From: Lingula anatina
Lineage: Eukaryota; Animalia; Brachiopoda
Assembly: GCA_051362555.1 (NCBI GenBank)
Contig: CM120648.1
Coordinates: forward strand, 9,792,587 to 9,856,586
DNA: 64,000 bases
Direction: 5' to 3'
In this document: positions 192-50,644 of the stretch, in pieces
Layout: the number at the start of each line of letters is the position of its first letter
Numbering within the stretch: position 1 is the stretch's first letter
The notes under the pieces: model-generated
Seen by the model: the letters and a program-made list of their open reading frames with translations, nothing else
Databases searched by the model: none
What the model was told of the DNA's origin: nothing
Made by a program: the position numbers and the translations under genes

Positions 192-239
192 TTCAACGAA
201 CGCTACTCTTTGTCACACATTTCTTTATTCGGAAACACG

Positions 240-12800: not shown

Positions 12801-13639
12801 AGCAAATTACGATAAAGATATAACGATGATGATAATAAAAATTGCAAATAATCAAACAGATTAGGGACTGTTACTCTACTTATTCTTTCCCGAGTTTATG
12901 TTAACATTTTAATATAATTAGTGTCAGCAGTTCTGTGTTGGTTTTATGGTCTTAGACTGCCGTTATCGTAAATACATGAACCTTAGCTCAACTGTTATGT
13001 TGCTATTTGTTATTGTTTAGTATACATGTACCACACATCCGCACACGTTCTTTTTTTCTCCAGGGTATAGATCAGGAGCTTTGTCCCCTTGGGTATGTTC
13101 CAGATGACCAGGGCTGCCGCCCTATTCTGTATAATTTCTCGGTATTAAAGTCAACGGTTTACTTGCATTTTGAACCCTGCGGCTGGATTCCAACAGCGGG
13201 GGGTGGTTGTACGAATATAGTCCGTGATGATCGAATGGGAAATGTACTGCAAACCGTGGGTGCGCGTATTGTTTCCTGTAGTCCGAAACACAGCGGGGAG
13301 AACTCGTCCGTCACTTTCCTCGTTCAAACATTGCTCGTCCTTCACGCGAGACTTGCAAACTACGAGGAAGGTCGTAAAGTTTTCGATCAAGTACGAGTAT
13401 GGATAGAAAATACTCTGCGAAATGTGCAGTTGGATATTCCCGGTGGACCCGTAGGGATACGTACAGCGTCGTTCTCTGCCTGCTCGGCGAACGCCACGAA
13501 AGACGGCTCCTCGACGCCATTTTATGGTGCGACCACGATCTCAACCCCAAAGCACAACCGAGGAAACATTCAAGCCGGTAGCAAAGGACTTTTGATGCTA
13601 ATGGCGATGGCGGCAGCCGCGTGGGATTTCCAGGTATGA
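9884..13639 (+). CDS. Secreted, likely GPI-anchored mucin-like/somatomedin-B + Cys-rich protein, copy 2 (exons 9884-11747, 12687-12793, 13064-13639)
   Basis: Same structure and splice phases as copy 1. Exon 2 reads DQSSASSNSKFDGFSFRSLL..MDL and the protein ends ..MAMAAAAWDFQV*. Confidence 0.8.
10085..10700 (+). repeat. Coding 45-bp minisatellite, 13 full units + 1 partial
   Basis: Same unit as 441-790; six extra units relative to copy 1. Confidence 0.95.
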
Positions 13640-18277: not shown

Positions 18278-18826
18278 CTTCAGGGTCGTCAATGGCTGGA
18301 TTGGGTTGGCAAAAACTTGCTACAGAAACCGCTGTATGGCCTTTGAACGGACAGAAACCCGGTTCTCCTGCAAGATAAGTCAGAGAAATAATATAAAAAA
18401 GTATAAATTTACTGAACCAGAACGTCATATGTTATAGGTATTGGTGCCGACTAAAATACCCGTACCTAAGATTTTTTAAAAATTTTCTCACGAATTTATG
18501 TAATAAGTAAGTATAGTGCAATTTTGACATCATCATTACAAAGCTTCGTACTCGTTATGAGACATCATGGACTGCTTAGGGATGTCATTGAAGGCAGGTT
18601 AATGGTAAAAGAGGCGAAAGAAGAAAGAGAATGACAATGTTCGACCACCGGCGCAAGAAGAGAGAAAACGATCTGAAAGTTTTGGTGAGATCAAACGAAG
18701 GACTGCAGATCGAGACGGATGGTGTGGGAGACGCTAAACCTACCTCGCAGCAAACAAGCAAGAAGAAGAAGAAGAAGAAGAATGAATTGCGTTTACGGGT
18801 AGGAATTACGACTTTTTAATTGTATA

Positions 18827-27994: not shown

Positions 27995-30900
27995 GGTAAG
28001 GACGTGGGGCAAGACCGAGGTGAGGCTCCACATATACGGATGTTCTCACAGATTGTGCATGTGGCAGTGAATATTAAAATGAAAGTTGTATAACTTAGGG
28101 GAAAACATGCAGTGGTGTGTGTTAAACATTTTCTATGGAAGAGCGTATGTCAAGCAAACCAATAAAATTCGGGTAAAAATATAGATAGGATATGTTTTGT
28201 ACCTGAACAAAATTGCAACAGAATTTGTTTTTCACCATGTATTGCCTTGAAGTCTTGGGAGCATCATACTAAAAGAATCTCTGCATGGAAAAAACGAAAA
28301 ATCCAAAATGGCTGTCAATATCTATAGAAATATACTATAGCATTAATGATCTTGCATCACATCACCGCCGTTTATTTTTCATTCAATATTAAGAGCCAAT
28401 TTCGTCAAAAGCATTCTCTCTAGTGGTTGATGGACATTTTGGCTTTATCATTTGGTATAAAATAGCTCTAAAAATAAAGGAAACCCTATCGACAACATAT
28501 GTCTGTAGTGCACAACTAAGCTGAAATAGTTGCTGACCCAATATTATAGGTGAACTTCGAGTAAGAAAATACTTTGGAATGGACATGCTGGTCATTGTGG
28601 GAAAGCCCTGCCTGTTTTAAACATGAAATTAAATTGATTGGAGACCACCAGAGTTTGCAATATGTTTTAACTTCAACAGTCTGTCGAATAAGTAAAATAT
28701 CCAATATCTTAAGGAAACGCATTTTGAAAACGTGTTATGGCTGTTATATCTATCTATTGGACTTATTGGCCATCTTGTGAAACCATATAGACCTATAGCT
28801 TCAAACGTTCTTTACAGCTCCAATTTTGACATCAAAATCTGCAAAATATCTGTAATTTGTAATGATCTCTACATAATGCATGAAAAGTGATATACTCCGT
28901 AGTTATATTGAGCCGATTTATACATAATTATTAACAGTAAACGAATGACAAATGTCAAGTGCAAATTTGGGATGAAATAGTGGAACGAGGCGAGTTCATA
29001 TGCTAGAGTATACATGTATATTTCTCTGGTAATTGTTCCCAAGCAGGAATTCTTCGGGGCTTTTCTTCCTTTTAGCATTTTGATTAGGGGAATTCAAGGA
29101 AATACATGGTGAAACAATAGATTCTTTTGTAACTACAGGGTTATCACTTAATATGGAATATTATTTTTTGGCGAGTAAATTTTCTATTAAATATTTGATA
29201 TCTCTCTAACTATTTTAAATCTAAAACTGAGGTGTCACTCCATGTGTAGCCAGGTGTGTTACCTAATTACCACACAACTCTCGAATCAATTGATGCATGC
29301 AGTTGCATGTTCTGTGGTCAGAAATGTAAGGGGTGGTCATTTCGGCAATTTATGCCCTTGTATAAAAACGCATGGGTTTGGTCAATCTTTGGAGTGTGTT
29401 TAGAGAAGCAACAAGGGATCGCTCTGAAACTTGACAGGTACCTTAGTGAAAATATGGTTCGACATCTAAGCAACGCAGCTTACTATGGGATTCTTGCTCT
29501 CAGAGAAAATGGCCAGAAACAGATAGCCATTGCCAGGTAATTCAACATTTATCAGGAACCGTTTGTAAAGTCTTCCAACGAAATGCTGCGACAGGGGCAC
29601 CTACTCCAGTACCTCGACCAGGGTGTCCGCGTATCACACCAAGAAGACAGGATCGCCATCTCCTTAAAAGACGCAGTGCTGGTCTTACAAAGACAACCAG
29701 TGTCCTCAGAAAAGAGAGGCAAAATGTCATTCAAACGCCCGTTTCAAGGTCCCTCGTGAACAAGAAATTACTGCAAGCCGGTTATTTTGCACGAAGACCA
29801 GTAGGGAAACCACTGTTAACAGCTGGTCATATACAGCGACGTCTGCAGTGGGCTGGGGACCACGTGCGTTTGCAGCCAAAACACTGGAATCACGCCATTT
29901 TCAGTGATGAGGCCAGATATGAATTTTTTGGGATTGATGGTCGAATCCGTGTCTACAGACGTGTTCGAGGGACATAAAACGATGATTGTGTACTGCCTAG
30001 GGTGCAAGCAGGGGATGGTAACGTCTCTGTTTGGGGAGCATTTGATGTCGGTGCCCAGAACCAGTTGGTTTCTCTAGGAGGCAACCTCAACCAGGATTCC
30101 TACAGAGACATTCTACAGCAAACAATGCTGCGATTGGTAAGAGTAATCTTCAGGAACAAATGTGTGTACCAAGACGACTACGCAACCCCACATTGAGCCC
30201 GTAGAATCACTGTTTTTCTTCAAAACCAATGGGTTCAGCAACTGCCCTGGCCTGCAAACTCTCCAGATTTGAACCCAATTGAAAAACTTTGGGCAAAAGT
30301 AACTCACAGAATTAATAGCTATGGTCATCGTCCGGTAAATAGTGATGAACTGCGACAGGCAAATATCACTGCGTGGAATGATATCCCCATCCAAACTCTA
30401 AAAAAATGTGTCACAGGGTATGCCATGTAGGATGAGGGCGCTGCAAGCGGCTGCTGGAGGTCATACCCGCAATTACTGTCTTTTCATGATTTACTGTAGT
30501 GAGTTCTTTGATTGTGTAACATATCACTGTCCGGAGGCTATCATTTTCTTTATTATCTTAGCTTAAAGTTAATACTGACATCAAACTGTTGCTATGGTTT
30601 TCTGGAAGTGTTATTTCTGTTGAATGGCATCTTATGGCTGCTTGATATTATACCAAAATATCTCAACAGAAGACTGGGCGTTTTTTTCACTCAGTGACAT
30701 ACTTTTTTTGATGAATCTAGCCAAAAAAATGTAAATAGCACTCAAAAATAACAATGATAAAAATATTCCATATTAAATAGCAACCCTGTATGTCCAGAGT
30801 AAACCCTATTTTGCTTTATGGATGCAAAGTTTGAATACAGCTACAAGCATAAAATCTATACATATGGATACCTGTGTGATAATGGAAATGAAAAGGATAG

Positions 30901-33900
30901 GGAAACAGGCACTACTGTGTGTTAAACGTTTCAATTAAGAATCAAGCGGGTATTTATTCCTATGTTAGCATATTGAAGACGTTAATTCATACAGCACAAA
31001 GTCATTTGAGGAAAACAAAGTATTGTAAAAGAAACAGTGCGACCACTTGAAGACATTGCGATAGTCAGATCGTGGTGTTGTGAGGATCGCTAAAACATAC
31101 TTATGATGACGAACCTTTGTTACTCGATGCTGCTAGAAAATAAGACACACTTTAACACACATCTGCAGCCAAATGGTCGTCAAAAAGGTTGAGTTTAGAA
31201 ATACAACAAATATATTTTGTCCATTTCCTCTTTTATCCTGATGATGTTACATATCGAGTGTGTTCTTTTTCTAATTTAGAAAATGTATACAAAGTACGTT
31301 TGGAACCGTTGCCAATGTCAAACAGAACGGAGCTGTTTAAAGAGGTTGCCACTGGAGGCCGATGGGCACCTACGTCATGCAAGCCTAGGGATCACGTGGC
31401 GATCATCATCCCTTACCGTGATAGACAAAAACACTTGGAAATTCTCCTCCTAAATCTACACCCTTTTCTACAAAGCCAAAAGTGCCTCTACCAGATATTC
31501 GTCATTGAACAAGTAGACTGCTTAACGACTGTTGCTTTTTAGCAACCTTCATCTCCCTCTCTTTCTGTCTCTCTCCCTCTCTCTCTCTCCCTCTGTCTCA
31601 GTTAATAGTATCAGATCCTCGGGTGCCACAAAGATAGGTAGTATCAAGGGTTCGTACACCATCTTTATTCAGTTTCCTGCAAGACGGCAACATTCAACTT
31701 TTCTCTATCAAAACTTCTTGAACTTTACCCTGCGTCACTTCATTTCAATTCATCTCCATTTGTTTTCTGAACACATCGGGTGCTGTTTTAAATCTTAATC
31801 AGCGTATTCATATTTCTGCAGGCTCACCCAGAACCTTTTAACACCGGATATGCCAAAAATATTGGATTTGTCGAGGCCAGTGCCACGTTTAATTTCACCT
31901 GCTACATATTTCACGACGTGGATAAAATCCCTATGAACAATTCACTGCTCTATAGATGTCCGCCTGGCAGAGTTCTTCATTTTGCCTCCGCTGAGGATAG
32001 GTTTAAGTACAGGTCTGTGATAATAATCCGCTACACAGCCTCTCTCTCGCTCATGTTCTGTCTCTCTCTCTTCGATTTCAGAATCTCGATTCTCTCTGCC
32101 AATGAAAATTATCACTGAAAATGCGACAATAAGGCGATCTCGGCTGTTTAAAAGATCTTTAAAAGACTGTTTTATCTATTTTGTCAATTTCAAATCCAAG
32201 TATTTTAAGAAATAAACAAATAAGTAAAAAGATAAAAATTATAAGTAAATGAATAAATATAAAGCTTTGCATGTTGTGACTTCAGGCTCCCCTATAAAAA
32301 CTACATCGGAGGAGTTATTGGATTCACTCCTGACACATTCAAAAAGATAAATGGGTTTGCTAATAACTACATAGGATGGGGTGGTGATGACGACGACATT
32401 TTTCTAAGGTAAGTGGGATGCTTATGGACGCCGGTACTGTAGGTGATTTATCCCTTCATCATTAAGGTAATTTTTAAGCAAATATAACCATTTTCGGTAA
32501 AATCATTAACAGTTGATCGCACTGGTTCTTCTGAATATTATTTTGGGATGGCATACACTCACAAGTTACCAGTAGATACAAATGCAACTAAAATTAGTCC
32601 TCATTACCGTTCAGTTAGAGCGCATAAATAACAAGCTGATCCGCAGACTAAATATGACCGACTGTTGCTGTTGGCTGTTTTGAATGCACTGTTATATCAG
32701 AGTGAAATAAGCAGGGGTGGACCCAGGATTAATTGAAGGGCGTGGGGTTGGGGGCCCGCTTAAGGACCCCATAAAAATGGTATTTTAGAGGGCAAAAAGT
32801 GCCATTTGGAATGGTTTAGAGCTATGATTCAGCTAGTCAAAATTATAATTTCAAGACGGGGCCATTGGTGTGATTTTATTCAGAATTCGAAGGGGGGTGG
32901 GGAGATCAGGACCCCCCTGACCCCCCCTCTAAATCCGCCATTGATAAGCCCCTGGTAAGGGCGTCAGATGGTTGTTTTGGATAAGGGGTAGAGTTTAAAG
33001 CCTCTCCCGCCAAAATCACAACGCAATCATAATTTGAATGTTGGTGTACGATTTTAAATTAAACCAGGGGTTGGGGGCCCGCTTAAGGACCCCATAAAAA
33101 TGGTATTTTAGAGGGCAAAAAGTGCCATTTGGAATGGTTTAGAGCTATGATTCAGCTAGTCAAAATTATAATTTCAAGACGGGGCCATTGGTGTGATTTT
33201 ATTCAGAATTCGAAGTGGGGTGGGGAGGTCAGGACCCCCCTGACCCCCCCTCTAAATCCGCCATTGATAAGCCCCTGGTAAGGGCGTCAGATGGTTGTTT
33301 TGGATAAGGGGTAGAGTTTAAAGCCTCTCCCGCCAAAATCACAACGCAATCATAATTTGAATGTTGGTGTACGATTTTAAATTAAACCAGATCTGTCTTG
33401 TTTTAGGAGTGTATATCAAAAGGTTCCTATTGAGCATGCCAACAATCGTTTGGGCGTGTACAGAGTTTTAAACCATCCGCGGTTGCCTGGTGACGTATAC
33501 ATGGAAAAGTGAGTTATTATAATACAGTGTATATTATAAAGTACATGTATCTTGTGAAAAAGAAAAAGAAGTTTTTTTGCACCCCTAGTAATATTCTAGG
33601 CTGATACAAGGGCTTGCTTAATATTACTTTTAAGTTAAAAATGGCATAATGATTTAAAAATGACAAAAAAAAAAAAAAACAAAAAAAACAAAAACAAATT
33701 TTAAATCCATCTTACTTGAACCAAAACAAGTAGCCTACATGTGCTTTTTAAATATGCTAGTACATGTTGTATCCAGTACTTATTCGACCTGCTAATCACT
33801 AACTATTTTAATAGTGTTTTTTTCAAGAGTTTTTTAAGTAAAGTGATTCGAATTCCCGGTGACTTATAATCATATTTGCCTTCTTGAAATTCTGCATAAG

Positions 33901-35192
33901 CCCACTCATTTTCAATCATTAAGCAAATGTTTTATTTCGTTCTTAAATGATTATTATTAAAATAATTTAAAGGTCTTCCATTCTTCTGGTTTATATCCAT
34001 ATAATATAATTTTTTTCTATGGAATGTGAGTCGACGGACTTGATACATTGAACTACATCCTACTAGCAACAGAGAATTTTCGCTTGGTCCCACTCTCGTT
34101 GTTTTTGCATACCCATTGCCATATATTCTGCAGAATTTCCAATGCTGCATAGCTTCCGTTGTATAATGATTGCCATTGCAAATAATTCATAGAGGTCCCA
34201 TGCTCCAGTTTGCATCGAAACTGTATAGGCACTACGGGCCTTGGAATAGTGGACTTAGTACGCTGAATTACACCCTGCTAGCAACAGAGTATCGACCAAC
34301 TTACACGTGGATCAAATTTAATGTCGATCAGGCCAGCATGATGAAGGTACGTAAGAACAGAACCTAAATCTTAAAAAGCATACAGCAGAACAGGATGGAT
34401 CGAGTCTCTATAATGATATATTGTTTTTTAAATGGTGCAGAATTTTATATAAATTTTACCAAATAAAATTTGAAGCGGTCTTTTCTGCACAGATATAAAT
34501 TATAAGAGTTTCCTGTCCTTGTATACATTACCTTGTGTCAGTTATAGCTTATTTTATCAGCAATATGCGTGCGAACGTGCATGCGCGCGTGCGCGAGAGA
34601 GTCCTAACGTCCAACCTTTTGTTTCGCAGACGTAATTGGACGTGACGTTGAGTAGAATTAATATTTTGTAAACGAACTAAACCCCGCTCTTTTTTTTATA
34701 CGTCGTATGCACTTCCAGAACGTGTGGAAAGGCATAATGGACGCCAGGTTTGACAAAACGGCCAATAGTACATACTGGAAAATTAACGAGCAACGGGCTT
34801 TCCAAATGTTTCCTAAGTAAGTGAACAAATGCTAGTTAATTTAAATGTGAAATTCTGATGAGAATATTTACATGAAATAGTGCCAAAATTGACCAAATTT
34901 AGAACAATAATTTCTATGTTTATCCTTGTTAACGCAAATACTCTTGTCAGCATTAATTTAGATCGAGGAGCCATAAAGTGTTTGAGCTTGGTTTGAGCCT
35001 GCGATGCATACAGTATGCCAAAAATAACTGTTTCTTTTGCTCACCATTCATAAACCCATGAATCCGTTAGTATATTTGCAAGATTCATGACAATTGTCGT
35101 GTGTTATTTTGTGCATTCTTGATAAAGATTTCTAAATTTTGATTTTAATTTTATTTTTCAGAACTGAGTGGAAAGGCGGAAAGGGGAGGTAG
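27646..35192 (+). CDS. GT7 beta-1,4-galactosyltransferase/GalNAc-transferase family protein (exons 27646-27743, 27910-27995, 31280-31512, 31822-32012, 32286-32408, 33407-33508, 34193-34346, 34719-34816, 35162-35192)
   Basis: Signal anchor MSTNRGLYFLFIPLAVLALFPMIII. Family motifs: GGRWAP..C, VAIIIPYRDR, FVIEQ, PFN, IFHDVD, LPY..YIGG, INGF.NNY.GWGGDDDD, SGLSTLNY. All splice phases are compatible. The last two exons are less certain. Confidence 0.85.
29136..30788 (+). mobile_element. Tc1-family DNA transposon, full length but inactive
   Basis: TA|CAGGGTTATCACTTAATATGGAATATT...AATATTCCATATTAAATAGCAACCCTG|TA. Confidence 0.92.
29454..30475 (+). pseudogene. Tc1 DD34E transposase with stops and frameshifts
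   Basis: RRPVGKPLLT..R.QWA, IFSDEARY, SVWGAF, YQDDYATPH*, WPANSPDLNPIEKLW, GGHTR, spread over several reading frames. Confidence 0.9.
32712..32943. mobile_element. MITE (reverse copy of the 18827 family), perfect 5-bp TSD ATAAG
   Basis: ATAAG|CAGGGGTGGACCCAGGATT...AAATCCGCCATTG|ATAAG. Confidence 0.85.
32744..33390 (+). repeat. 323-bp intronic tandem duplication (part of the MITE plus flank)
   Basis: ggggttgggggcccgcttaagg...ttaaaccag repeated at 32744 and 33067, almost identical. Confidence 0.95.
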
Positions 35193-38100
35193 AAAAAACA
35201 GAAAACAAAGAACCCCAATTCTCACGTACATTATATTACAAATGACGTCTTGATCTTCCCGTCTGAATTTTTTTTTTTCAGTTTAGAACATCACTAAAAG
35301 GTGCTGTCCTTTAAATGCTAAGGCTGGATATTTTTAGACCTTTCTCTTTTTAGCCAGTTCGAAGACTACTTCTTTCAAAGGGACCAAAAGATTTCTAGGG
35401 AGTTTTTATCCATCTGTTTTTGCTCATTCTAACAAAAGAAAAAATAGAATTTTAGCAACCACAGTGTAACCTTGAAGACTTTACCCGAATAGCATTTTAT
35501 ACATCTTATCCGAATAGAAATTCAATTTCCGTTATGTGTGAGAATACAGTAATTTCTAAATTCTAAAATTGATATTCATTCCCTGATAAAGGTGCTCTGA
35601 TGGACATAGAAATATTCATCCCTGACCGTTATATGTGAATTTTGAATTTGTACATTAATGGCTGAATAAACCCTTTTCTAATAATGTACATGTGCTCTAG
35701 TATTCACATACTTTTAGCCATGAATTGGTTTATACTTCTTTTGGGCATTGGCTCCTAAGGTCACTGCCACGCGGCGAGCTCTTGGCCTATTCGAGTATAA
35801 AATATATGATAGATACGGTAATTTATCCCTGAATTTGAAGAAAATTGATTTATTATTATTGTTTTTATTATTATTTTAATTATTATTATTATCAATTAGA
35901 TTTGACCAAAATACTTTATGTGTAACATAAAGATGTTAGCTAGAGCACCAGAAATAACTTTGCTGGGTTTTCACTGTTTTACTATTTTGTAAAAATAAAG
36001 TGCATAGGAAAGAACATTGCAGCGTTCGACTATTCGGCCTACAGAAGTGGCAACTCGACTGTGACGTACATTTTCAAATGCGTATTACAATTTTTAAAGA
36101 AAGTAGATTTTGCACAAAAAGAATATTTTGCGAGTAGTTAAAAATACGAATTTTGCATATGTATAAAAAAAACGTTTTGAATTAGCGGGTAGCTCGACAT
36201 CCGTGAGTAATTACCGTAATTTAATTGTATACAAGGTGTCCAGAAGTGCACCGCCATTGCTTGTCAACAAACGCACGTTGCCCCGGTGGTGACGTACGTA
36301 AAAGAATATATTTCAAGGCGTAACTGGCACGAGGAGGGCACATTAAATATACATATACTAATTGTCCCATTTGTAGCATTGTATTCTGCCCTGATAATAA
36401 GGCTGTTGCCAACATTTATATAAAAATATGTGCATTATCAATGTTATCATAGCATTTCATTTTGCGTGGTCTGATTTAGATGGATCCCCGAGGGTTTGAT
36501 CAATGTGTATTTGTGTGTTTTATACATTGTGTTTTTATGTCAGTTTAGTTTCGTTTTTGAATTAACTTTCAGTATTTTTTATGGATTAAAACTGCAAAAC
36601 CAGAGGGTTTAATTTGTGGACAAAAGTGGCAAAACACTCCCTTTTCTTTCTAATTACGTTCTCAGTGTTTATTGATTTTTTTTAGTTTTTTCTTATCAAA
36701 ATGTTACAAGATGTGCAGTTAATTTACATTAAATAGGAGATAGAGTAAGACGGAGAGTGAGAGAGAGAAACAGACGTAACATGGAGTTCTATGACTGGAC
36801 CGTTACTTTGCTGGGTATCGACCTGCAATCACTATCAATTTTAAAACTCTGAAACACAGACGAATTTTTTTCATTTTTAGATAATTATTGTTTACTGGCT
36901 TTTCGCAATTTTGCAATTGTGTTGTGTAAATACAATACTGCATATTTTGGTATATACGGAAAGGGCATATGCTCCCGACCAAAAAAAAAAAAATAGTTCG
37001 GAAACATGGAATTGTTTTTCATTAATTAAAAAACTATGTAAAGTAGTGAGCAAAACTTAAGTGTATATAAAAGCGTAATGAATGGTGGGTGCATCAATAT
37101 TTTAAAAATTATTTACCTTAGCTAATATGGTTATTTTATAATTATTCAAAATAACTATCTTTCTGAACTGTCGAAAAATGTACGTCTAACTTTTAAACAC
37201 TGTACATACTCCTAGACTCATCTGAATACGCACTTTGGTCGAATGGTCAAGTATTTAAGGCGTTCACGCCAAAAATAATTCATTCAATTTACCACAATAG
37301 AAGAAAGGACTTGAAGGAAATGAAAATGCTAGTTTCAAGCTATCGGGTGCATTACAGAAAGAAAACGTCCTCATAAAATACTGCATAAAAACACTAGGAG
37401 TGGTCTAACGTTAATCTATAACGTGAGCGCACCGACACAAATCATTCTTCTGTGCGGTTTATGGTTTAATTTGACAGGCGGACCTTGTGACAGAAACTCT
37501 ATGATTGACGGTTTCCATATCATTAGAATTTTCTCTTTTAAATTTTTGAAAGTTCAAATCCATAGGAGACACCCTGAGCCTCAGAATCTCTCCCATATGA
37601 TTTATCGACAAGTCAGCGGTTATTCCCGAGGGATGGGCTAAGTTTTGAGGATTGTGAGAAATATAAGTCCACCACCACCCCACCCCCCACCCCCGCGGGA
37701 TTCATCAGGGCCACCTTAATTAGTATACAGGGTAACACAATTATATATCTAAGGGAATAAGTACAGGGTCAATTCACGTAGGGTCAGGCTTCATGAATGA
37801 CAATTGCCTTTTGAGATCTCGCGTCTAATGTTTTTACGTTCGCCGCATGAAATCGCCGTTCGAGTCCTTAATTCGGCGTTCGCGATCACCAACCCGTGGC
37901 TCAAGATCGCGAACGGCAAATAGGCCTACGTTTGTAAGGCCTGATGACACCCTGTTTTAGCCATTTAGTGTCCCAGATGTTGCGTGTAACTAATATAGTA
38001 TAAACATGGTAGGTCGCATAGTGAATCGTTGATTCTCGGGGTACCTGCTACATAACATAGACCCTGTTACACGAAACTGGCGAGAGCTTGGGGGGCTGAT

Positions 38101-38960
38101 TTCGGCTTGCTCTCACAAATATGTAACAAAATCAAAAACCTGTTACATTTTTAGTGAGGTAATTATGAATCTCAATGAAGATGAATGAATTTGGTGTTTT
38201 TTGTCAAAGCCACAATTTTGAAGGCGGGGAGCTTGCAAAAATTTGTTCTGATCGGTTGCAAACCCGGTAGTGGAAAGACTTGTCAGTTGAGATTTTTAGC
38301 CTCAATATTTGCAGTGCAGCACCACAAATTTACATATATTCAAAATAATATGCAGAAACATGCTTTACCACAATAAAGGACTACGTATAACAATTTGATG
38401 ACTTTTTGATTTGCGTAAATTGGCAAAATAATTTATGATTTAGTGAGGTAATCATGAATCTCAATGAAGCAGAGAGAGAGAGAGAGAGGGAGAGAGAGAG
38501 AGAGAGAGAGAGATTGCAAATAGGGCCTAGCGTTGTCGGGTCTTGACAAAATTGTTGCAGTTCGAACATAAGTCATTGGGCTATATAATACACCCCTTCC
38601 ACCACATTCTTTGTAATACCCGCACTGTGCTGACCATTTTACGGTGGAAGGGCGGGGGGAAAGAGGATTCAAATCGAGCAACTTTTCATAACAATAACGG
38701 AAGGGGGGGGGGGGGGGGTTAGGTTCTCTCTTTACAATCAGATTTTTTTCTAGAGGAGAGAAAGAAAATTGGTGAGGATTTCAATCAAGAATACTAGTAT
38801 CTTGGGGACTAAAACAATGTTTGTTAAACCCGTCTGAACGCGACCTTGTAAACATAACATTACACTACCATTTTTATTTCCTATTTCATATAAATTGGGT
38901 GTAGTCAAGCGACTACGATATGAAGTCGGACGTGGAGGAGGGGGGGGGGGGGGGCTAAAA

Positions 38961-39037
38961 CGGGTGTGATAGGAATGGCAGTCCTGCTTGGAACCCCGGA
39001 CCTACATTCCTGGGACTACCATTCCTGTCACACCGGT
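38961..39037. repeat. Small hairpin/MITE in the promoter region of the repeat-lectin gene
   Basis: cgggtgtgataggaatggcagtcc ... ggactaccattcctgtcacaccgg inverted repeat. Confidence 0.7.
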
Positions 39038-39161
39038 ATCAAAACCCCAGACTGAACGGGACCTTGTATACATTACACTCCCCGGTTACATTCCAGTCCG
39101 TTGCCAACTACTGACAATGCTCGCTGCCTAGGGAAATACCATCTCATACATCATTAATGCA

Positions 39162-39197
39162 TATATAATATCTGCAATTGTGTACGTCGACACAGTC
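39162..39197 (+). promoter_or_regulatory. TATA box plus Inr-like CAGT of the repeat-lectin gene
   Basis: TATATAA at 39162, cacagtc ~30 bp downstream, ATG at 39231. Confidence 0.5.
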
Positions 39198-39230
39198 TCT
39201 TTGCTGGATTCCGATCAGAGGAGAGAGAGA

Positions 39231-40867
39231 ATGGATCCGAGAAGAGCTGTAGCGGTGACTTTTGCGCTCTTTCTTGCGCTCTCTTTGCTAGTCGCAGGCG
39301 CTGAGAGCACAACGAAATCGAGCAAAAAGTCATCGGCTAAGAGTCCTCCTAGTCTGCCTGGTAAGTTTGATAACTTTTCTTGCGTTGAATTTTTTCACTT
39401 TTTTTTTTTTGAAAATTTCAAATTTGATCGTACGAGGGGGGTGGGGTGGGGTGGCGGAATATTTTTTGCTGCATTTTACGTTTGAAATATTAAAAAAATT
39501 GATCAGGTAGACAGTCAGATAGACAGTCAAAATAATTTAATAGGATTATTGGTCTTTCCCAGTTTCTTTGGTCATCATTGCGATGTATTTACTTTAAGTA
39601 TGTTAAAAGTACAAAAACGATTTCAGACAAGTTAGTTTCTGCTCACTAACACACACACAAACAAACACACACACACACACACTTCATATATTTTCTTGTT
39701 TTATCTTTGCCACACTCAGATATTAAAAGCAAAACGTCGCCGAGGGAACAGTCTTCGGATTTAAGTCCTCCTTGTCCACAAGGTTGGTTTTGTAATTTTT
39801 TCTTTCATATCTCTGTGCTTGTTTCAAATTGTTTCAAGTATGGTCCTTTATATCATAGGCTTTTATATCAGTTGATTAGCTTTCCCCATTTTCCAACCGA
39901 TTTACATTTTTGTGCTAATTGTAAAAATTGAAACTTAAATAATAAAAGATAAAAAGTCGGCCAAATTGATTGAATAAGATTTTTGGTCATTTTCTGTTCT
40001 TCTGCTCTGTTCAGCGCTATTTTTACTATGTGCATAAAAGTAGAAAACGATTTTAGGTTGATCTCTGGTCGCATACGTGAAAAATGTCTTGCTTTTCCTT
40101 CAGATGAGATAGGAGTCGACGTTGAGGGACAGACGAAATCGAGCAAAAAGTCCTCAGCTAAAAGTCGACCTAGTCTATCAGGTAGGTTCGATAGTTTCTC
40201 TTTTTCACTCAATTCGCTAGCTTCAAAAAGAATAAAAACGATTTCTGATAATTTCTGGTCACGTAAATAATTTTTTTGTTTGCTCCCATTGTTAGGCGCA
40301 GACGTTGCGAGCAAAACGAAATCGAGCAAAAAGTCCTCTGCAAAAAGCCCTCCTAGTCAACCAGGTAGGTATATTTTTTTACTACTTTCGTTGTACGTTT
40401 TTTTGCTCTTTTTACAACCTTGAAAAGTTGAAGGTGAGAAAGAAGACGGATCGCATTAATACCAGTAATATATGTCACTCCCTTTAACGCTGTATTTTAC
40501 TCTTTTTTGTACTAATAAAGGTTAAATTTTATTAAAAGGCAAACATGTACAGTTCATGTAGAAAGTAGGTCATATAATTCAAATAGGAGTTTTGGTTATC
40601 CTCAGTTTTTTTTGCTCATCCTTGCCTTTACTGTGTAAAACTAGAAACTATTTTAGGTAAGTCTCTGGTCATGTACGTAAATATAAAAAAATTCTTGTTC
40701 TCCCTTCGGCTGAGCTAGCAGCAGATGTTGAGGGACAGACGAAATCGAGCAAGAAGTCTTCAGCTAAAAGTCATCCCAGCTTATCAGGTGTGTTTGATAA
40801 GTTTTTTGGTGTATTTTTCCCTTTTTTTGCTAGTTTTTAATTTTAAGTAAGCGTGTGTGTTAGTGTA

Positions 40868-40902
<35 letters not shown>

Positions 40903-43900
40903 GGACGCACGAAAGGCCTTCATGTCAGTAAGATACCCTCTACCAGGGTGGCAGATATTATAGCCACATATTCCACCAGCCAGTTAGAAGATTGACCATA
41001 TTTATCGAGACATACATATGAATATCTAGTGAAAAATCAATCAGTGGACTTGATAGAGGGTAGCAGTTAGATAGTTTCCTTCCCTTTTGGCTGAATGTTA
41101 CACTCATTTTTGCAAATTAGGAATATTTTAAATCTGAAAAAGAGCAAGTAAGTGTCAGTTATTTTGATTGAATAGATTTTTTAGTTATTTTCATTTTTCT
41201 TTGCATATCCCTTCGCTGGATTTACTATGTGTTACAGAAGTATAAAAACGATTTCTGATCATCTTCTGGTCATGTAAATAAATGTTTATTTTTGCTCTCT
41301 TTGCAAGGCGCAGATGTTGCGAGCAAAACTAAATCGAGCAAAAAGTCCTCCGCAAAAAGCTCTCCTAGTCAACCAGGTAGGTTTGACATTTTCACTTCTT
41401 TCGTTGCAGGTTTTTGCTTTCTTTGCAAGCTTAAAGTGTTGAAGTTGGGGGGAAAAAAGACAAAGAGCTTTCATATCGGTTAGATATCTCACTACCTTTT
41501 ACACTTCATTTTACACTTTTTTGTGCTAATAATGGTTTAATTGTATTAAAAGGCAAAAAATATACAGTTAAAGTAGAAAGTAGGCAATGTAATTCATATA
41601 TGATTTTTAGTTATTCTCTGTTTAGTTATTTCTGCTCCTGCCTGGGCAGTCTTTACTATGTGCGTAAAAAGGGTAAAATCGATTTTAAATGTGGCCACTT
41701 GGATAAATACTCATTTTTATTGTGCTTTCCTTGCTAGTCGCCAACGTAAAGAGCCAAACAAAATCGAGCAAAAAATCCTCAGCTAAAAGCCATCCTAGTC
41801 TGCCAGGTACGTTTGATATTTTTTCTTTCGTTGTACTTTTTCAGTCTCTTTGAAAGCTTTAAAATTTGATCGTAAGGGGGACGGGCAGGCGGGCGAATGG
41901 TCTTTAAATCAGTTAAATATTTCCATCCGTTTTTCGCTGCATTTTAGGTTTCATTTGGTGCGTAAATGTTGAAATGGAAAAAAGTCAAAACACTCACATT
42001 GATTAAACAGGATTATTGGTCATTTTCATTTTCTGTGGTCATCTTTGCAATGGCATTACTGAGTGTGTAAAAAGTAGAAAGGGGGTTTCGGACAAGCTTC
42101 TGCTCACTGACATAAATAAAAATTAATTTATCCTGTTGTCTCTTTGCCACAATCAGATATTAAAAGCAAAACGTCGCCGAGCGAAAAGTCTTCGGATATA
42201 AGTCCTCCTTGCCCACAAGGTAGGTGTTATAATTTTTTCATTTGTATCTCTGTGCTTTTTTTCTATTTTCGGGAATTCGCACCATAGGCCTTCATACATG
42301 TATCAGTTGAATAGCTTCCCCCCTTTTCCAACCAATTTACACTTCTGTACTAATTGTAAAAATTGAAACTTAAATAATAAATAAAATGTCAGCCGAATTG
42401 CTTGAATGAGATTTTTGGCCATTTTCTGTTCTTCTGCTCTTCTCAGCGCCATTTTAACTAAGTGCATGAAGGTGGAAAACGATTTTAAATAAAGCTCTGG
42501 TCGCATAAGTGAAAAATTTCTTGTTCTTCCTTCAGATGAGCTAGGAGCCGACGTTGAGGGACAGACGAAATCGAGCAAAAAGTCCTCAGCTAAAAGTCGA
42601 CCTAGTCTATCAGGTAGGTTCGATAATTTGTCTTTTTCACTCATTTCGCTAGCTACAAAATAAATAAATAAATAAATAAATAAAAAATAAAACGAATAAA
42701 TAAAAAATAAAACGAATAAAATAAACAAATAAAATAATAAGAAGAAGATAAATAAATATTAAATATATAAAAACGATTTTTGATTATCTTCTGGTCACAT
42801 AAATATTTTTTGTTTACTTACTTTGCTAGGCGCAGATGTTGCGAGCAAAACGAAATCGAGCAAAAAGTCCTCCGCAAAAAGCCCTCCTAGTCAACCAGGT
42901 AGGTTTGACAATTTCACTTCTTTCGTTGCATGTTTTTTGCTCTCTTTGCAAGCTTAAAGTGTTGAAGTTGGGGGAAAAAACAGACAAAGAGCTTTCATAT
43001 CGGTTAGATATCTCACTACCTTTTACACTTCATTTTACACTTATTTGTGCTAATAATGGTTTAATTATATTAATAGGCAAAAATATACAGTTAAGGTAGA
43101 AAGTAGGTCATATAATTCAACTAGGATTTTTGGTTTTTCTCCGTTTTTCTGCTCCTGCCTGCGCTGTCTTTACGATGTGCGTAAAAAGCATAAATTCAAT
43201 TTCAAATGTGGCCACGTAGATAAAAACTCATTTTTATTGTGCTTTCTTTGCTAGTCGCAGGCGTAAAGAGCCAAACAAAATCGAGCAAAAAGTCTTCAGT
43301 TAAAAGTCATCCTAGTCTGTCAGGTACGTTTGATAATTTTTTCTTTCGTTGTACTTTTTCACCCTCTTTAGAAAGCTTTAAAATTTGAGCGTAAGGGGCG
43401 GGCGAATGGTCTTCAAATCAGTTAAATATTTTCATCCGTTTTTCGCTGCATTTTACCTTTTTGTCTTAATTTGTCTTTCGATGTATTTTCACTCATTTCA
43501 CTAGCTTCAAATTTTGAGTGAGCGTGTGTGTGTGTGTGTGTGGGGGGGGGGGGGGGGCGCACGAGAGGCCTTCATGTCAGTTAGATAGTTTCCTCCCCTT
43601 TTGGCAGAATTTTAGCTATTTTGTTCAAATTAAAAATATTAAGTTTAAAAAAACAACTACAATGTCAGTTGTTTTGATAAAATAGTATTTCTTTTAGTTA
43701 TTCTTAGTTTTCCTTGCATCTCCCTGCGTCACAAGTTGACTTACCTTTGCGTACAGGAGGTATAAACACAATTTCTGATAATCTTCTGGTAACGTAAATA
43801 ATTTCTTTTGTTTACTTACTTTGCTAGGCGCAGATGTTGCGAGCAAAACGAAATCGAGCAAAAAGTCCTCCGCAAAAAGCCCTCCTAGTCAACCAGGTAG

Positions 43901-44780
43901 GTTTGACATTTTCACTTCTTTCGTTGCATGTTTTTGCTCTCTTTGCAAGCTTCAAGTGTTGGAGATGGGAAAACAGACGAAAAGTTTTCATATCGGTTAG
44001 ATATCTCAGTCCTTTTTACACTGCATTTTACGCTTTTTTTGTGCTTATAATGGTTTTTAATTAAAATTGTATTAAAAGGCAAAAATATACAGTTAAGGTA
44101 GGAAGTAGGCAATATAATTCAAATAGGATTTATGGTTATTCTCCGTTTTTCTGCTCCTGCCTGCGCAGTCTTTACGATGTGCGTAAAAAGCATAACATCG
44201 ATTTCAAATGTGGCTCATAGATAAATACTCATTTCTATTGTGCTTTCCTTGCTAGTCGCCAACGTAAGGAGCCAAACGAAATCGAGCAAAAAGTCTTCAG
44301 CTAAAAGTCATCCTAGTCTGCCAGGTACGTTTGATAATTTTACTTTCGATGTATTTTTCACTCATATCGCCAGCTTCAATTTCTGAGGGGGAGGGTGTGG
44401 TGACGGGATCGCACGCCAGGTCTTCATTACTGAAGATACCTTCCTTTTATGCTGCGCTTTAATTTTTTTTTTTTTTTTGTAAAAAACTCAGGTAGACAGT
44501 CATTCGTATTGTTTAGATAGGATTTTGGTCATACTAAGATTTTTCTGCTCATCCCTGCGCTGTGTGTAAAAATATTAAAACGATTTCGATAAAGCTTGTG
44601 GTCACGTAGATAAAAATTCATCTTTTCTTGTGCTCTCTTTTCTAGTCGCAGATATAAGTAGAAAAACGAAATCAAGCAAAAAGTCCTCAGCTGGAAGTCA
44701 TCCTAGTCTAAAAGGTAAGTTGGATTTTCTTTTTTTGTATCCTTCATATCGCTCATTTAGCTAGCTTAAAATATTGTGTT

Positions 44781-44836
<56 letters not shown>

Positions 44837-47036
44837 GAGGGGGGGGGGTGGCACGATGTCCCTTTATATCAGTAAAAAAGCCCCCACCCCCCTCATCTTC
44901 ACTGTAGTTTCTTGTGTGTTTATTAAAAACATGGAAGGGTTAACAAAAAGAGCAAGTAGAAGGGCATTTGATTAAATTGGATTGTGGTCATGCTCAATTT
45001 TTCTTCTCATCCCTGTACTGGCTTCACTATAAGTGTAAAATAGAAAACGATTTCAGATAAGCTTGTGGGTAAGTAGTTAAATCTCCATTTTTTATGGTCT
45101 CTTTGTCAGCTGCAGATATAGGAAGCAAAACGAAATCGAGCAGAAAGTCCTCAGTAAAAAGTCTGCCAGGTAGGTTTGGTAATTTTTTATTACGTACGTT
45201 GTTATTTTCGCTCTCTTCGCAAGCTTCAAGTGCTAAAGGTGGGAAATTTAACGAATGACCGTCACATCGTTTAGATTTTTGAGGATTCATGTTGATTCAC
45301 CGTATAGATCTTGATAAAAATAGAAGTATATATATTGATGCACCTTGAAAGATATTCCCCGAAGAAGGCCCAGGGACCGAAAGCTCGGATTGTATTTAAC
45401 AACTATAATGTAGATCTTTCAAGGTGCATCAATATATATACTTCTATCGGTTAGATTTATTCCTTTCTTCGCTACATTTTACGTTTCATTGTGTGCTCAT
45501 AATTGTGAACGTTGAAAGTTAAAAAATGAAAATCTGGTAAGCAGCCGTATTGATTTTATTTTATTTTTATTATGAGTTTAAAAAACAAAAAATGATTACA
45601 GAGAAGCTTTTGTCCACGTAGATAAATATATCTTTGTTGTGCTCTCTTTGACTAGTCGCAGATAAAAAGAGTAAAACGAAATCGAGCAAAAAGTCCTCGG
45701 CGCAAGGTCCTCCTGATCTACCAGGCAAGTTTCATAGCTTTTCCATTTTTTTAAATTTTCTTTGGGAAAGGAAACCGTTCAACTGGCCTTCATATCAGTT
45801 AAATTTTTGTTGCTGTATTTTTACATACTTAAGGCTAATTCTAAATATTGAAAGTTGAAAAAAATAATGATAAGGCAGAAAGTCAGTCGCGTGGGATCGG
45901 CTTAATCACCCCTTAGCTGTTCGAGGAGGCGTGTCAGACAATTAAGCCGACCCCACTGAGTGCACTTAGCGAGAATCCCTCGCAGAGTTGAACCGACCGA
46001 GTTGGTGTGATGTGCAGGGGGGGGGGGGGGGGGGGAGGGGGGCGAACGAACTGCCCTTTTTAACGGGAAAGGGTCCACACTGGGTAAAATTCGATCTGGG
46101 TACACGACGGTTTTTCACAGTAAAAAGACCACTTTTTTCGGAAAGAAACCCCTCTCAAATTGCTGGCTATGGGCCTGTCACATGGCAGGTTCTTCAATTT
46201 CATCGTAATCTTTCCAGCCTCCACAAAGAAAGGACGATTGGACTGCGACTGTCACGGAGATTACAGGACGGAATGTTGCGTAGGTCACCCGGTTAAAGAC
46301 ATCACACTGGTCACTCAGCGTCCGGAGAAAGTGACCGATAGCGTGTGCGTCCCAGGGTTGATGTACGGCTTGGCAGAGGACAGGATCTATGTAAAAGGAT
46401 GCAAGGGGCAGTTCCAAGTCAGTTTCCAGTGTCAGAAAGTCAAAACACGTAAGTACAAACACCCCCTCCAAGAATAAAACAGTACTTTTTCTCTCTCTCT
46501 CAGCAGCTGGTATTTTCATTTAGTTGTGCATTAAAGATAAATTTGAAATCAATTTTTGCATCAAAAGCCGACCAAATTCTACCATACAAGTATAGTTTCA
46601 TATAGTATAACTTGGAGATATGGCAAAATACATCGTTTCATATTACCCCCCAAAAAATTATGGCAGATTAGTGATTTTTCCTTTTACCTCTGGTCATGAC
46701 GACTTAATCTGAGTCGTATAAGAAATTACTAGAAGTGGTTTACATGCGTAATTGGAAAACCATGCTCACCGTTTTCGTATCTAATTTTTTTCGTTCTTAG
46801 GTTCCGTAAAATGTAAAAGCATCAACTGGTCATTCAACGAATGTGAAGTTGAAGGTATGATTATCGACATCTTTGCCAAGAAAGAATTAAACGCTAAGAA
46901 AGGGAAGAAGGAGCCCTGTTTCTCAGCTTGCGTGCAGGGCAGAAGTTTCGGTTACCACGGCAACAAAATCTGGGTCGCCAACAACTGCTCTGCGGTATTC
47001 CGGGTGACGTATTGTGCGGACCAAAAATCATGCTGA
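39231..47036 (+). CDS. Secreted Ser/Lys-rich repeat protein with two C-terminal DUF3011/ADEL-lectin-like domains (18 exons: 39231-39360, 39720-39782, 40104-40181, 40296-40364, 40719-40787, 41308-41376, 41738-41806, 42157-42219, 42536-42613, 42830-42898, 43255-43323, 43828-43896, 44256-44324, 44646-44714, 45110-45169, 45656-45724, 46218-46448, 46801-47036)
   Basis: Signal peptide MDPRRAVAVTFALFLALSLLVAGAES. Fifteen internal exons of 60-78 nt, each with polypyrimidine+AG and a GT (one GC) donor, all phase 1-1. Terminal exons encode C.C.....ECC..ITLVTQ..C..G..YG....IYVKGCKGQF and CKS....ECE..C.QGRSFGY....IWVANNCSAVF*. AATAAA at 47221. Confidence 0.88.
45321..45446 (+). mobile_element. Penelope-like remnant: 33-bp perfect inverted repeat around a degenerate hammerhead motif
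   Basis: tagaagtatatatattgatgcaccttgaaagat (45321-45353) and atctttcaaggtgcatcaatatatatacttcta (45414-45446). The spacer contains cCGAAGAaggcccagggaccGAAAgctcgg. Confidence 0.55.
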
Positions 47037-47881
47037 AAAAAAATTCCCATTCAAAAAACTTAAGTTTTTGTCCTCAAATCCGTGGAGAATTTCATAATTA
47101 GAAAAGTCGCATGTACATGTAGTAAATGTGAAATTGACAAGAAAAAGTCAAGTGAATTCCTTTATTATTCTTTAATGATTAATAACTTTTTCAAGCAGAT
47201 TTCACGTCGATCGTTTAGGAAATAAACATGACCTGGTGTTAAAGCCTGAATTTGTAGTTTGCGAAATGGCCAAAAGATGTTCATGTGAAAGTAAAACAAT
47301 TTCCCTTAAAACAATGTTAGTGATTTCAATGTCATTTAATGATTTCAACGTAGATTGTGTCGTTTGCAATATCCTGCGTTGAATGTCTGCAACTTTCTGT
47401 TTTTGCCTGTGAAATATTTTTTCAGCAGTTAATTAAGCAGGGATGAAACTGCCATTTGGTGAAAAAAGTTTGAAAATATGGCTTGGGGTCCTGGAAACCC
47501 TGAGCATCGATCTCAGAAATGATACTTTTGGCTCCCATAGAAAAATCTCATTAGTTTACTGGTCAACAGATTGACACCGCCTCCCTGCTGATCTTGTTAG
47601 CCTTAGAACTCGTGGCTTATAAAATAATATCCTTCTCCTCAGGTTCTGTTGGACCAACTTTGACCCCAAAAGAGAGCTTTGGAGCTTTATTCAGTTCATA
47701 ACATGTCACGTCAAAACTGAAAATATTTGACTAAGATGCTGGAATTTTGATGAATGCCTCGCCAGTATCATTGGACCAACTAACTTCAAATTTGGATGAT
47801 TTTTCAAACTGCCTTTTAAATCCGCAGTCCACATGATGGTCAACTGGCAATTTTAATTGGGTTTTGAACCAGTTTGCTGCC

Positions 47882-50644
47882 TCATTCTCCATGGGTATAA
47901 GCAAACATCCCTTTCAGTAACCTACAAGCTGGCAAGTTGTTGGCCTCCGTTGGAATCCTGTACGGACCGTGATCGCCCATATACACATAACTGTTCAATT
48001 TAATTAAGGAAAACAATTTTAAATATAATATAATTTGAGTATAATTATGTTTGAATACAGTGATATGGGATTTATTCTTTTTGTTGGATACAAACTATTT
48101 AAAATACGGTTACTTGACTTGTGCACGCTCAATATACAAATAAATCAAGTACGAGTGGAACGTATAATTATGTAATTCATAAAGTGACCCAAAAAAAAAA
48201 AGAAAAAAAAAAAAAGAAAAAAAAAACTTTTCAATATAGATCACATTGGGCATGAAAGAAAAAGGATTGAAAATTGCCATGAAATTAGTAGATAAACTTA
48301 TATACCGAGACTTTGTGGCCATACCTATATTAAATGCATCACATCCTAAGCAACACACACACAAGTTTACATGGATGCACATAAAGCCTGTATCCAACAA
48401 ACATGTATTACATAATATATAAAATTGCATCCACCACATTTCAATCACTTAATTTTAAATAAATACTTATTTTCAACCACTTAAAACAAGCAAAAAAAAA
48501 TCTAATGAGAAGGATACGGCAACCGCAGCACCCATATTCCTCCCTGTGGCAGAACAATGGCGCCATCATGACTTGGCATAAACACAGGGCACGGCAGAGG
48601 CGCTGGCTGAATTCTGGGATTGATAGAGATGTTGGTAGGGCCTTCAGGTGTGGCGATGTATATTCTCATCAACTGTGCCATCAGACCTTTGGAACTCCTG
48701 ATACAAAGGATTGCATATGAATTATTGACAAGACTCAAAAATGGTGAAATAGGTTCTACATTGCTGATGAAAAAAAATTAAGTAAATATTGTTTCTAAAG
48801 TGCTCACATTAAGTATCTTTGAGGAAGGGTTCAAAATCTTCATAGGCATAAAACATAATTATATTTTCTTTAAAAAAAATTTTGATCAAACTGCTGTTTT
48901 ATTTTAATTTTCAATTTTTTTCAGAAAAATGATTTTTGAATGTAGGATCTTTTCGAAAACATGTCACAGCTGAAGTATGCACTAATCAAAGTCACAATTC
49001 TAAGACACTTTATATGAGCGAAATCAATCAATAATTAGGTGTTAAATGCTGTGTTAAAAAAAGAACCTGAAAAAAAAATTCAAAAGTTCTGAAAACAGAG
49101 TTACCCTTGTGAGCAAGACCATTTGTGCTTTGAAAAATCTCTCAGTAAGTTGTATGTTTGATATATTTGAACAAGAACTATATCACAACTGACATTAAAA
49201 TGTTCACTTCCAAAACAACAATTCCTTACCTACAGTGACATGGAAAGTACAGTGGCATGTCATTACTCAGAAGCTTGTTGGCATTGTCCTAAAATTTTAG
49301 AATAAAAAAACACTTAGTAATACTCTTTTAAACTGAAAGGATTCATCATCCTGGAGTGAGTTCTCTCTACTTGTATCACAATGGATGCCAAGAACAAATG
49401 ACCCAGGTGTATAATATGATATTGTGCATCACATGATATTGTGTATCACATGATATTGTGTATCACATGATATTGTGTATCATTGAATATTATGTATCAC
49501 ATGATACTGTGCATCACATGCTTCACTTCACCTGGGTATTTTCCACCATACAATAATAATAAAAATTCACAAAACAAAAGATATGGTTATTTTCTTCTAA
49601 AATCTACGGGAAGACAGACAGTCTAAGTTACTGATCAATCATTTATAGCTAAATTTTCCAAGGGAATTGGTAAGAAAAAATAATAAAAACAAACCCCCAA
49701 AATCCAAGTGGGGGGATAATTTTTGATAAAAATTCAACTGGCAGGAAAATCCCAGTTATAAGGACACCCTTCAAATATGATGTTATAATCCTTACCTTTG
49801 GTGGCCCACTCCCAGGCACTTTGATGATCTTCTCAGGACCACTGCAGAAAAACCTGTGACCTCTAGGACACTCGTACTCCAGTCCGAGGTAAACCTTCAT
49901 GTTGATCTCTGCAGGTTCTGAAGGAGTGATAGAAAATATGCCCAATTTTTAATTATGTATCAGTTGCCAGAGACCTGTGGCATCTGGGGCACCCGTCTTC
50001 AGGTTTTTATAAATGACAAAAATAAAATCAAACACATAGGATTAATCCGCTGAGAAACTGATTTAAAGAACTGTTCAAATCAGTCAGACAGACTGTTATT
50101 TAACATCACTAAATGACCAAATAACCTGGTTTAACCGGGTCTATGACGGTTAATTTCCAAATAAATCAATCTGAAAAAGACATCAATCAGTGCTTACTCT
50201 ACTGTTTTCACACGAACTCACCTGGTATGCTCTTCTGCCCTCGTTTATTCTTCCCCTTCTTCCCCCCTGGTGCCTCGTTAATGGCGGGCCACTTTTCCCT
50301 GTCCCCCTTCACCAGGATGTCCCAGGGTAGAAGGTAGTTGCTGCCATGCATGAATCCTGGCTGGTCAATACCTGGAGTGGAAATGACCAAGTGACTCTCT
50401 CTCAAACACACATACACAGACACAAATGTAGTCAATTTGTTATTGCAAAATTCTTTTCCCTTCTTTCCATGCTTTCTCTCTCTCTCTCTCTCCCCCCTCT
50501 CTCTATCTCACTCACACACGCATTCATAAAAACACACATGCAGTCATTACTTAGTAATGGCAAAATTCATCTCCCTTCTTTCCATACTTTCAGTCTCTCT
50601 GTGTCTCTCTCTCTCTCTCTCTCTCTCTGCACCGAAATTCTCTT

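Follow-up and report, generated by a model that had tools for sequence, protein, structure and literature searches.

Within the DUF3011 family a single subfamily has been characterised, and no structure has been solved. The proteins characterised so far bind galacturonic acid and assemble into disulfide-linked dimers and multimers; in AKL, which consists of three repeats, galacturonic acid is the preferred ligand, xylose is bound moderately and a covalent dimer is likely, and a Lingula DUF3011 relative, XP_013393448, has already been listed (PMC5484111). In the silaffin precursors of diatoms, RXL processing sites end each repeat (PMC4557024), and S-x-E and polyserine are described as Fam20C targets (PMC12621633). 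The shell mineral of Lingula is fluorapatite and its extracellular layers are rich in glycosaminoglycan (PMC13425148); no secreted acidic proteins were found in the 2015 Lingula proteome (PMC4595640). In this work, a stretch of 64,000 nucleotides (nt) from the brachiopod Lingula anatina (GenBank assembly GCA_051362555.1, contig CM120648.1, positions 9,792,587 to 9,856,586 of the forward strand), hereafter the window, was analysed around a gene at 39231-47036 (+) that is predicted to join a Ser/Lys-rich repeat tail to a head of two tandem DUF3011 domains. The reading tentatively favoured, at somewhat less than an even chance, is that of a two-part binder in which a lectin-like head and a polycationic tail clamp acidic polysaccharides. 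All positions are those of the window.

Gene structure and transcription

By inspection of splice sites, a single spliced gene of 18 exons was modelled on the + strand from the ATG at 39231 to the stop codon at 47036, with a frame that is open throughout and a model protein of 542 amino acids (56.9 kDa, isoelectric point 10). All 17 introns are in phase 1; 16 are GT-AG and one, with its donor after 45724, is GC-AG. A signal-like start is followed by 16 one-repeat exons and by two Cys-rich exons at 46218-46448 and 46801-47036, a layout that bears out the signal peptide, 16 repeats (14 with the motif) and two disulfide-rich domains described in the initial annotation. The repeat exons are 60-78 nt long, except exon 1, which has 130 nt. 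The motif TKSS[KR]KSS[AV] is present in 14 of the 16 repeats, and exons 2 and 8 are of a divergent type with SPPCPQ at the end and a single Cys. A six-frame scan of the window for the core motif returned 15 matches, all inside the gene (39315-45679). Exon 1 is the sole ATG-led hydrophobic first-exon candidate across 32200-39235 (7 kb upstream), and its GC content is 0.52 versus 0.25-0.38 for intron ends. A signal peptide of about 25 amino acids is predicted from hydropathy (2.87 over 11 residues), and no membrane segment follows the N-terminus in the model protein; on these two points the protein is predicted to be secreted, as had been claimed. The exons and the stretch of signal-peptide codons discussed below are listed here with the evidence for each.

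39231-39360 (+): exon 1, with ATG, predicted signal peptide and repeat 1 (hydropathy, GC content, scan of upstream candidates)
39270-39291 (+): signal-peptide codons that share ancestry with the acceptor AG and pyrimidine tract of repeat exons (alignment, 18/20 nt with the best intron end)
39720-39782 (+): exon 2, repeat of the divergent SPPCPQ type with one Cys (RNA joint to exon 3)
40104-40181 (+): exon 3, repeat (RNA joints on both sides)
40296-40364 (+): exon 4, repeat (RNA joint from exon 3)
40719-40787 (+): exon 5, repeat (RNA joint to exon 6; acceptor inferred among three AGs)
41308-41376 (+): exon 6, repeat (RNA joints on both sides)
41738-41806 (+): exon 7, repeat (RNA joint from exon 6)
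42157-42219 (+): exon 8, divergent repeat with one Cys, a copy of exon 2 (56/60 nt identical to exon 2)
42536-42613 (+): exon 9, repeat, a copy of exon 3 (60/60 nt identical to exon 3)
42830-42898 (+): exon 10, repeat identical to exon 12 (splice signals, repeat sequence)
43255-43323 (+): exon 11, repeat (splice signals, repeat sequence)
43828-43896 (+): exon 12, repeat (splice signals, repeat sequence)
44256-44324 (+): exon 13, repeat (sense RNA depth)
44646-44714 (+): exon 14, repeat (splice signals, repeat sequence)
45110-45169 (+): exon 15, shortened repeat, TKSSRKSSV (splice signals, repeat sequence)
45656-45724 (+): exon 16, repeat with predicted GC donor (splice signals, repeat sequence)
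46218-46448 (+): exon 17, DUF3011 repeat 1 with 7 Cys (own repeat profile, E value 4e-9)
46801-47036 (+): exon 18, DUF3011 repeat 2 with 7 Cys and stop codon (Pfam E value 2.5e-4, 537 relatives, AlphaFold2, sense RNA in run X2)

Seven of nine RNA runs assigned by species label were used, and 6-26% of each was read; depth over the gene was about 1x, and joints were listed from a threshold of three reads. Joints on the sense strand match introns 2, 3, 5 and 6 (4 of 17), and these joints all come from the three runs of study P1. Exon 18 was covered on the sense strand in run X2 at 2.6-3.3x. Splicing of the repeat exons is therefore real and the last exon is transcribed, whereas the joining of repeats and head is a prediction based on splice signals and reading frame. 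A back-joint from 44322 to 42828 (exon 13 to exon 10) was present in runs X1, X2 and X3. Because exons 10 and 12 are identical and the last 40 nt of exons 11 and 13 show only 2 differences, it was read most simply as an allele, likely a change in repeat sequence, order or number rather than circular RNA, with additional repeat units as a possible alternative cause. Short dispersed repeats in the introns at 40933-41062, 45290-45447 (which looks like an inverted repeat), 45909-45980 and 46695-46746 draw reads from other transcripts.

DUF3011 head and Ser/Lys tail

The Pfam model PF11218 comprises three repeats over 197 positions, and exons 17 and 18 were scored singly against it; exon 18 alone reached 21.5 bits (E value 2.5e-4), below the curated cut-off of 25 bits, and exon 17 alone had no Pfam match. 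When exon 18 served as the query of an exhaustive search, 537 relatives were recovered at E values up to 0.001. Among the 150 matches listed, 65 were scanned and 64 of them match PF11218 far above the cut-off, the sole non-DUF3011 case being a TSP3-repeat protein. The named animal matches are annotated as ADEL-like lectins (Aplysia, Mya) or as a D-galacturonic acid binding lectin (Plakobranchus), and other animal matches are uncharacterised proteins from a chiton and a land snail. A single-repeat profile built from 356 units of these relatives was run against 1608 segments of the window and matched only exon 18 (E value 1e-14) and exon 17 (E value 4e-9). The repeat core C..C..C..G..[WFY]G..[WY]V..C...F is kept, with four Cys, two Gly, Val and Phe in both domains. 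The best Atlas matches for exon 17 were DUF3011 at 0.81-0.84, which was taken as a lead only. For exon 18, AlphaFold2 with 68 sequences gave an all-beta model with a predicted local distance difference test score of 90; no solved structure matched DUF3011 by sequence profile or the head model by Foldseek. In the DNA, the tandem domains are two in-frame exons after the signal-like N-terminus. The scanned relatives and the repeat profile argue strongly for DUF3011 kinship of the head, and the original assignment of both domains to DUF3011/ADEL is upheld. The head is basic (K+R 25, D+E 16).

The tail has 361 amino acids, with 29.6% Ser (107 residues), 19.4% Lys, 9.7% Pro and no aromatic residues. 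With 76 K+R and 24 D+E, its net charge is +52 when unmodified, which makes it a polycation and not the zwitterionic tail initially proposed. It carries 14 regular B-x-x-B-B clusters, 14 KxxK and 13 SSKKS. Over the eight core codons of the 14 core exons, the proportions of synonymous (pS) and nonsynonymous (pN) differences were 0.36 and 0.008, a pN/pS of 0.02 that is biased low because the core was chosen by motif and the divergent exons 2 and 8 were excluded; in the flanks of the same exons pN/pS was 0.40-0.49. This difference indicates selection on how Lys and Ser are spaced, and the protein motif of the core is clearly under purifying selection. The core Ser is invariant among the 14 core exons.

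Origin of the repeat array

The introns are mutually homologous, with introns 6, 10 and 12 being 86-90% alike, and exons 2-7 were duplicated as a six-exon block to give exons 8-13. The hydrophobic core of the signal peptide is encoded by the 20 nt that precede the AG at 39291. Aligned with the acceptor tracts of the repeat exons, this stretch is identical at as many as 18/20 positions, against a background in which 0 of 324 acceptor-like sites elsewhere exceed 14/20. Further upstream, no homology of exon 1 to the acceptor tracts was detectable. On the simplest reading, with the direction inferred, the array would have grown as the 3' portion of exon 1 was duplicated in tandem; Leu and Phe codons of the signal peptide would have supplied the pyrimidine tract and AG and become splice acceptors. 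The gene is clearly a candidate case in which tandem duplication of a partial first exon yielded new exons and introns, and it would record how a repeat array expanded as signal-peptide codons turned into splice acceptors.

Function

The tail is basic and the AKL-related head is basic; both parts therefore point at polyanions with no modification assumed. In the favoured two-part binder, the model that makes the fewest assumptions, the two DUF3011 domains would bind uronic-acid sugars, judging by their kinship to AKL, and the lysine-rich, likely disordered tail, presumably unmodified or lightly modified and cationic, would grip acidic polysaccharides by charge. The protein would be secreted with tail and head joined, and oligomers might form through the two lone Cys of the tail and six extra Cys of the head. 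The result would be cross-linking or aggregation of acidic polysaccharides in mucus or extracellular matrix, the target being either the animal's own glycans or microbial or algal polysaccharides. With a selected polycationic tail added to it, DUF3011 would offer a concrete design, open to testing, by which acidic polysaccharides could be clamped in seawater.

Several points weigh against the two-part binder. The galacturonic acid that AKL prefers is not the uronic acid of animal glycosaminoglycans. Identity of the head to its relatives is about 30-50%, and both domains deviate at some conserved columns: domain 1 has Cys and Thr in place of two Ser and Tyr in place of a Trp, and in domain 2 one Ser and one Gly are each replaced by Asn and 9 residues are inserted. 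Given these departures lectin activity may be altered or lost. The strict heparin-binding consensus XBBXBX occurs once only, the bias in the core pN/pS flatters the selection estimate, and the conservation of Ser, which charge binding alone does not explain, could mark modification sites. Introns 16 and 17 had no joint listed at about 1x depth in the 7 RNA runs. This last point, together with zero depth in the exon 17 bin in X2 and X3 and the non-canonical GC donor, would fit a wrong 3' model, with the repeats unspliced to exon 17 or exon 17 skipped and the DUF3011 exons belonging to another transcript. Such an error is improbable: all junctions are in phase 1 and the frame is open to the stop in exon 18, neither a stop codon nor an alternative 3' exon is present for the repeat exons, and the head has no other start in the span examined. 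Exon 18 was also read on the same strand in X2, a run that reads the repeats too, and a depth of about 1x lies below the three-read threshold.

A phosphorylated tail, with the head docked on a chitin or other glycan scaffold, might instead form a polyampholyte that nucleates or stabilises calcium phosphate (less likely silica) or an adhesive coacervate, and this was judged unlikely. The tail offers 107 Ser, about 29 phosphoserines would neutralise its charge, and 14 KxxK and the invariant core Ser would fit. A pentalysine cluster is defined by five or more Lys in 14 residues, and 7 of the 16 repeats hold one. The shell is fluorapatite, Lingula has an Lsi2-like silicon transporter and discinid larvae form siliceous tablets (PMC5100055). 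One DUF3011/ADEL-like entry in the 2026 proteome is a Nautilus shell matrix protein (PMC13425148), a small positive precedent for the domain in shell. However, the tail has 0 R-x-L, 0 S-x-E, 2 S-x-D and 6 S-x-S, no polyserine (the longest Ser run is two), and no Tyr in its 361 residues, hence none for 3,4-dihydroxyphenylalanine (DOPA). Of 5000 whole-tail shuffles, 1426 (29%) contain one SSKKS or more, as do 407 of 20000 shuffles of one repeat unit, and the 13 copies of SSKKS in the tail share one duplicated exon as ancestor. Because the composition yields SSKKS and the copies share one ancestor, the silaffin likeness amounts to one weak coincidence, and the silaffin-type, phospho-polyampholyte step of the initial annotation is unsupported. 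The radula, girdle and silica contexts that it named drop out, since the host is Lingula, with a fluorapatite shell; no report of silica in Lingula itself was found in a limited literature search. In the 2015 Lingula supplement and its shell-protein domain table there is no DUF3011, and the 2015 tables, with the first rows of Table 25 excluded, have no entry of such length and composition (PMC4595640). None of the 54 Lingula shell proteins of the 2026 proteome has DUF3011, and four probe motifs are absent from its supplement (PMC13425148). Absence from these two shell proteomes is weak negative evidence, and the gene may be mis-modelled in their databases. Depth was low in all 7 RNA runs. A mineral role is therefore made less likely, and its support does not reach past amino-acid composition. 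If the tail were phosphorylated and expressed in mantle, it would be a candidate nucleator for the apatite shell of Lingula. The boldest form, a long shot, is an independently exon-amplified, lectin-anchored, silaffin-like phospho-Ser/Lys polyampholyte that seeds calcium phosphate (or trace silica) on a glycan scaffold and was missed by shell proteomics through its gene model and modifications; if true, it would supply the phosphoprotein nucleator that is missing for the oldest apatite shell and would have converged on the diatom silaffins.

That the tail is a mucin-like stalk, O-glycosylated and extended, which spaces or solubilises the lectin head and uses its exact sequence as a glycosylation platform, was judged as unlikely as the phosphorylated polyampholyte. 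S+T+P make up 44% of the tail, aromatics are lacking, and the one-exon repeats with their likely allelic change in number or order (the back-joint in X1-X3) would suit such a stalk; against this, Thr is only 4.7% and Lys 19%, a composition from which typical mucins differ, Pro stands at -1, +1 or +3 for only 22 of 124 Ser/Thr, and the conserved portion is the Lys-rich core and not the Pro-rich part. A defence lectin of mucus, gonad or eggs, whose head would agglutinate microbes and whose cationic tail would bind and inhibit them, overlaps with the two-part binder and differs from it in target and outcome. AKL-40 is antibacterial and antifungal (PMC8306185) and a tail of such strong positive charge would attach to anionic cell surfaces, but with no aromatics and few hydrophobic residues membrane disruption is unlikely, and this role was considered rather unlikely overall. 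Very improbable is a polyprotein from which convertases cut, at 16 dibasic sites, Ser-rich peptides of about 20 residues and a free two-domain lectin. The 14 KK and 2 RK pairs are regularly spaced and lie where conservation of the repeat is highest; convertases cut KK poorly, and there are 0 KR, RR or R-x-x-R sites and no amidation glycine.

Neighbouring loci

Two single-exon glycosyltransferase-61 genes are present. One, at 16781-18277 within the span 16778-18319 (-), shares 98% identity with LOC106159644 of Lingula anatina, which places the window in this brachiopod or a very close form and not in a mollusc; the second lies at 5260-6531 (-), with an end that differs from that of the paralog at 16781; both belong to a family with many close relatives at 41-47% identity. 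Tandem paralogs at 192-3752 and 9824-13639 (+) carry a 15-amino-acid Thr/Glu-rich repeat (45-nt unit, 7.4 and 13.5 copies), a Cys-rich stretch that has no Pfam match and that we take to be a somatomedin-B-like pattern, and a hydrophobic C-terminus. These paralogs alternate with the glycosyltransferase-61 genes, and a two-gene block was therefore duplicated. The paralog-like LOC106159647 is listed as a Lingula shell protein from one peptide at a Q-value of 1, and the Thr/Glu-repeat family, with its acidic repeats, is also a shell-matrix candidate. Family-7 galactosyltransferase-like exons (31156-32118, +) and a Tc3/mariner-type transposase fragment (29450-29977, +) were also found. The 3' end of a well-expressed SMG8 gene at 47240-50000 (-; Pfam E value 1e-12) converges on the tail-head gene, with opposite-strand RNA from about 47240 and an intron at 47990-48518 that RNA confirms in each of 4 runs; the adjacency is not taken to mean a functional link.

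Comparison with known systems

A lectin combined with a low-complexity repeat is a common design among invertebrate secreted proteins, and the head family itself is already known, including in Lingula; XP_013393448 is probably another locus, judged only by the distance of its accession from those of the genes next to the tail-head gene. Among 149 DUF3011 matches no Ser/Lys tail was found by a search that is weak for this purpose, the longest non-domain stretch never exceeding 12% Ser; the nearest case, P0048, has a 150-amino-acid Lys-rich insert with 10% Ser and 19% Lys. A repeat-profile search, also weak for that question, returned no relative with a Ser/Lys tail, and no description of the tail plus DUF3011 architecture was found in the literature. 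The architecture thus seems undescribed, as the initial annotation had supposed, and comes at present from one species.

Like the diatom silaffins (Sil1p, tpSil3) and cingulins (PMC4557024), the Lingula protein has Ser/Lys-rich repeats, predicted to be secreted, with KxxK and the SSKKS word. It differs in lacking RXL, in its animal host with an apatite shell and in its fused lectin-like head, and no homology to silaffins was detectable by repeat profile. With the phosphoserine cement proteins Pc-3 and Sa-3 of sabellariid worms and the mussel mfp-5 (PMC12621633) it shares predicted secretion, a low-complexity, Ser-rich character and a lophotrochozoan source, but it lacks polyserine, S-x-E and Tyr for DOPA and has a globular head. 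The low-complexity shell matrix proteins of Lingula (PMC4595640, PMC13425148) share the organism and lineage-specific repeats, and many novel ones are basic; unlike the product of this gene, those described are Ala- or Gly-rich and none is listed with DUF3011. With AKL and ADEL it shares a predicted signal peptide, Cys-containing DUF3011 repeats in predicted tandem and the same core columns. Compared with AKL, the Lingula protein has two repeats instead of three and 7 Cys per domain instead of 4, is basic where AKL has an isoelectric point of 4.5-5.4, and bears a 361-amino-acid Ser/Lys tail.

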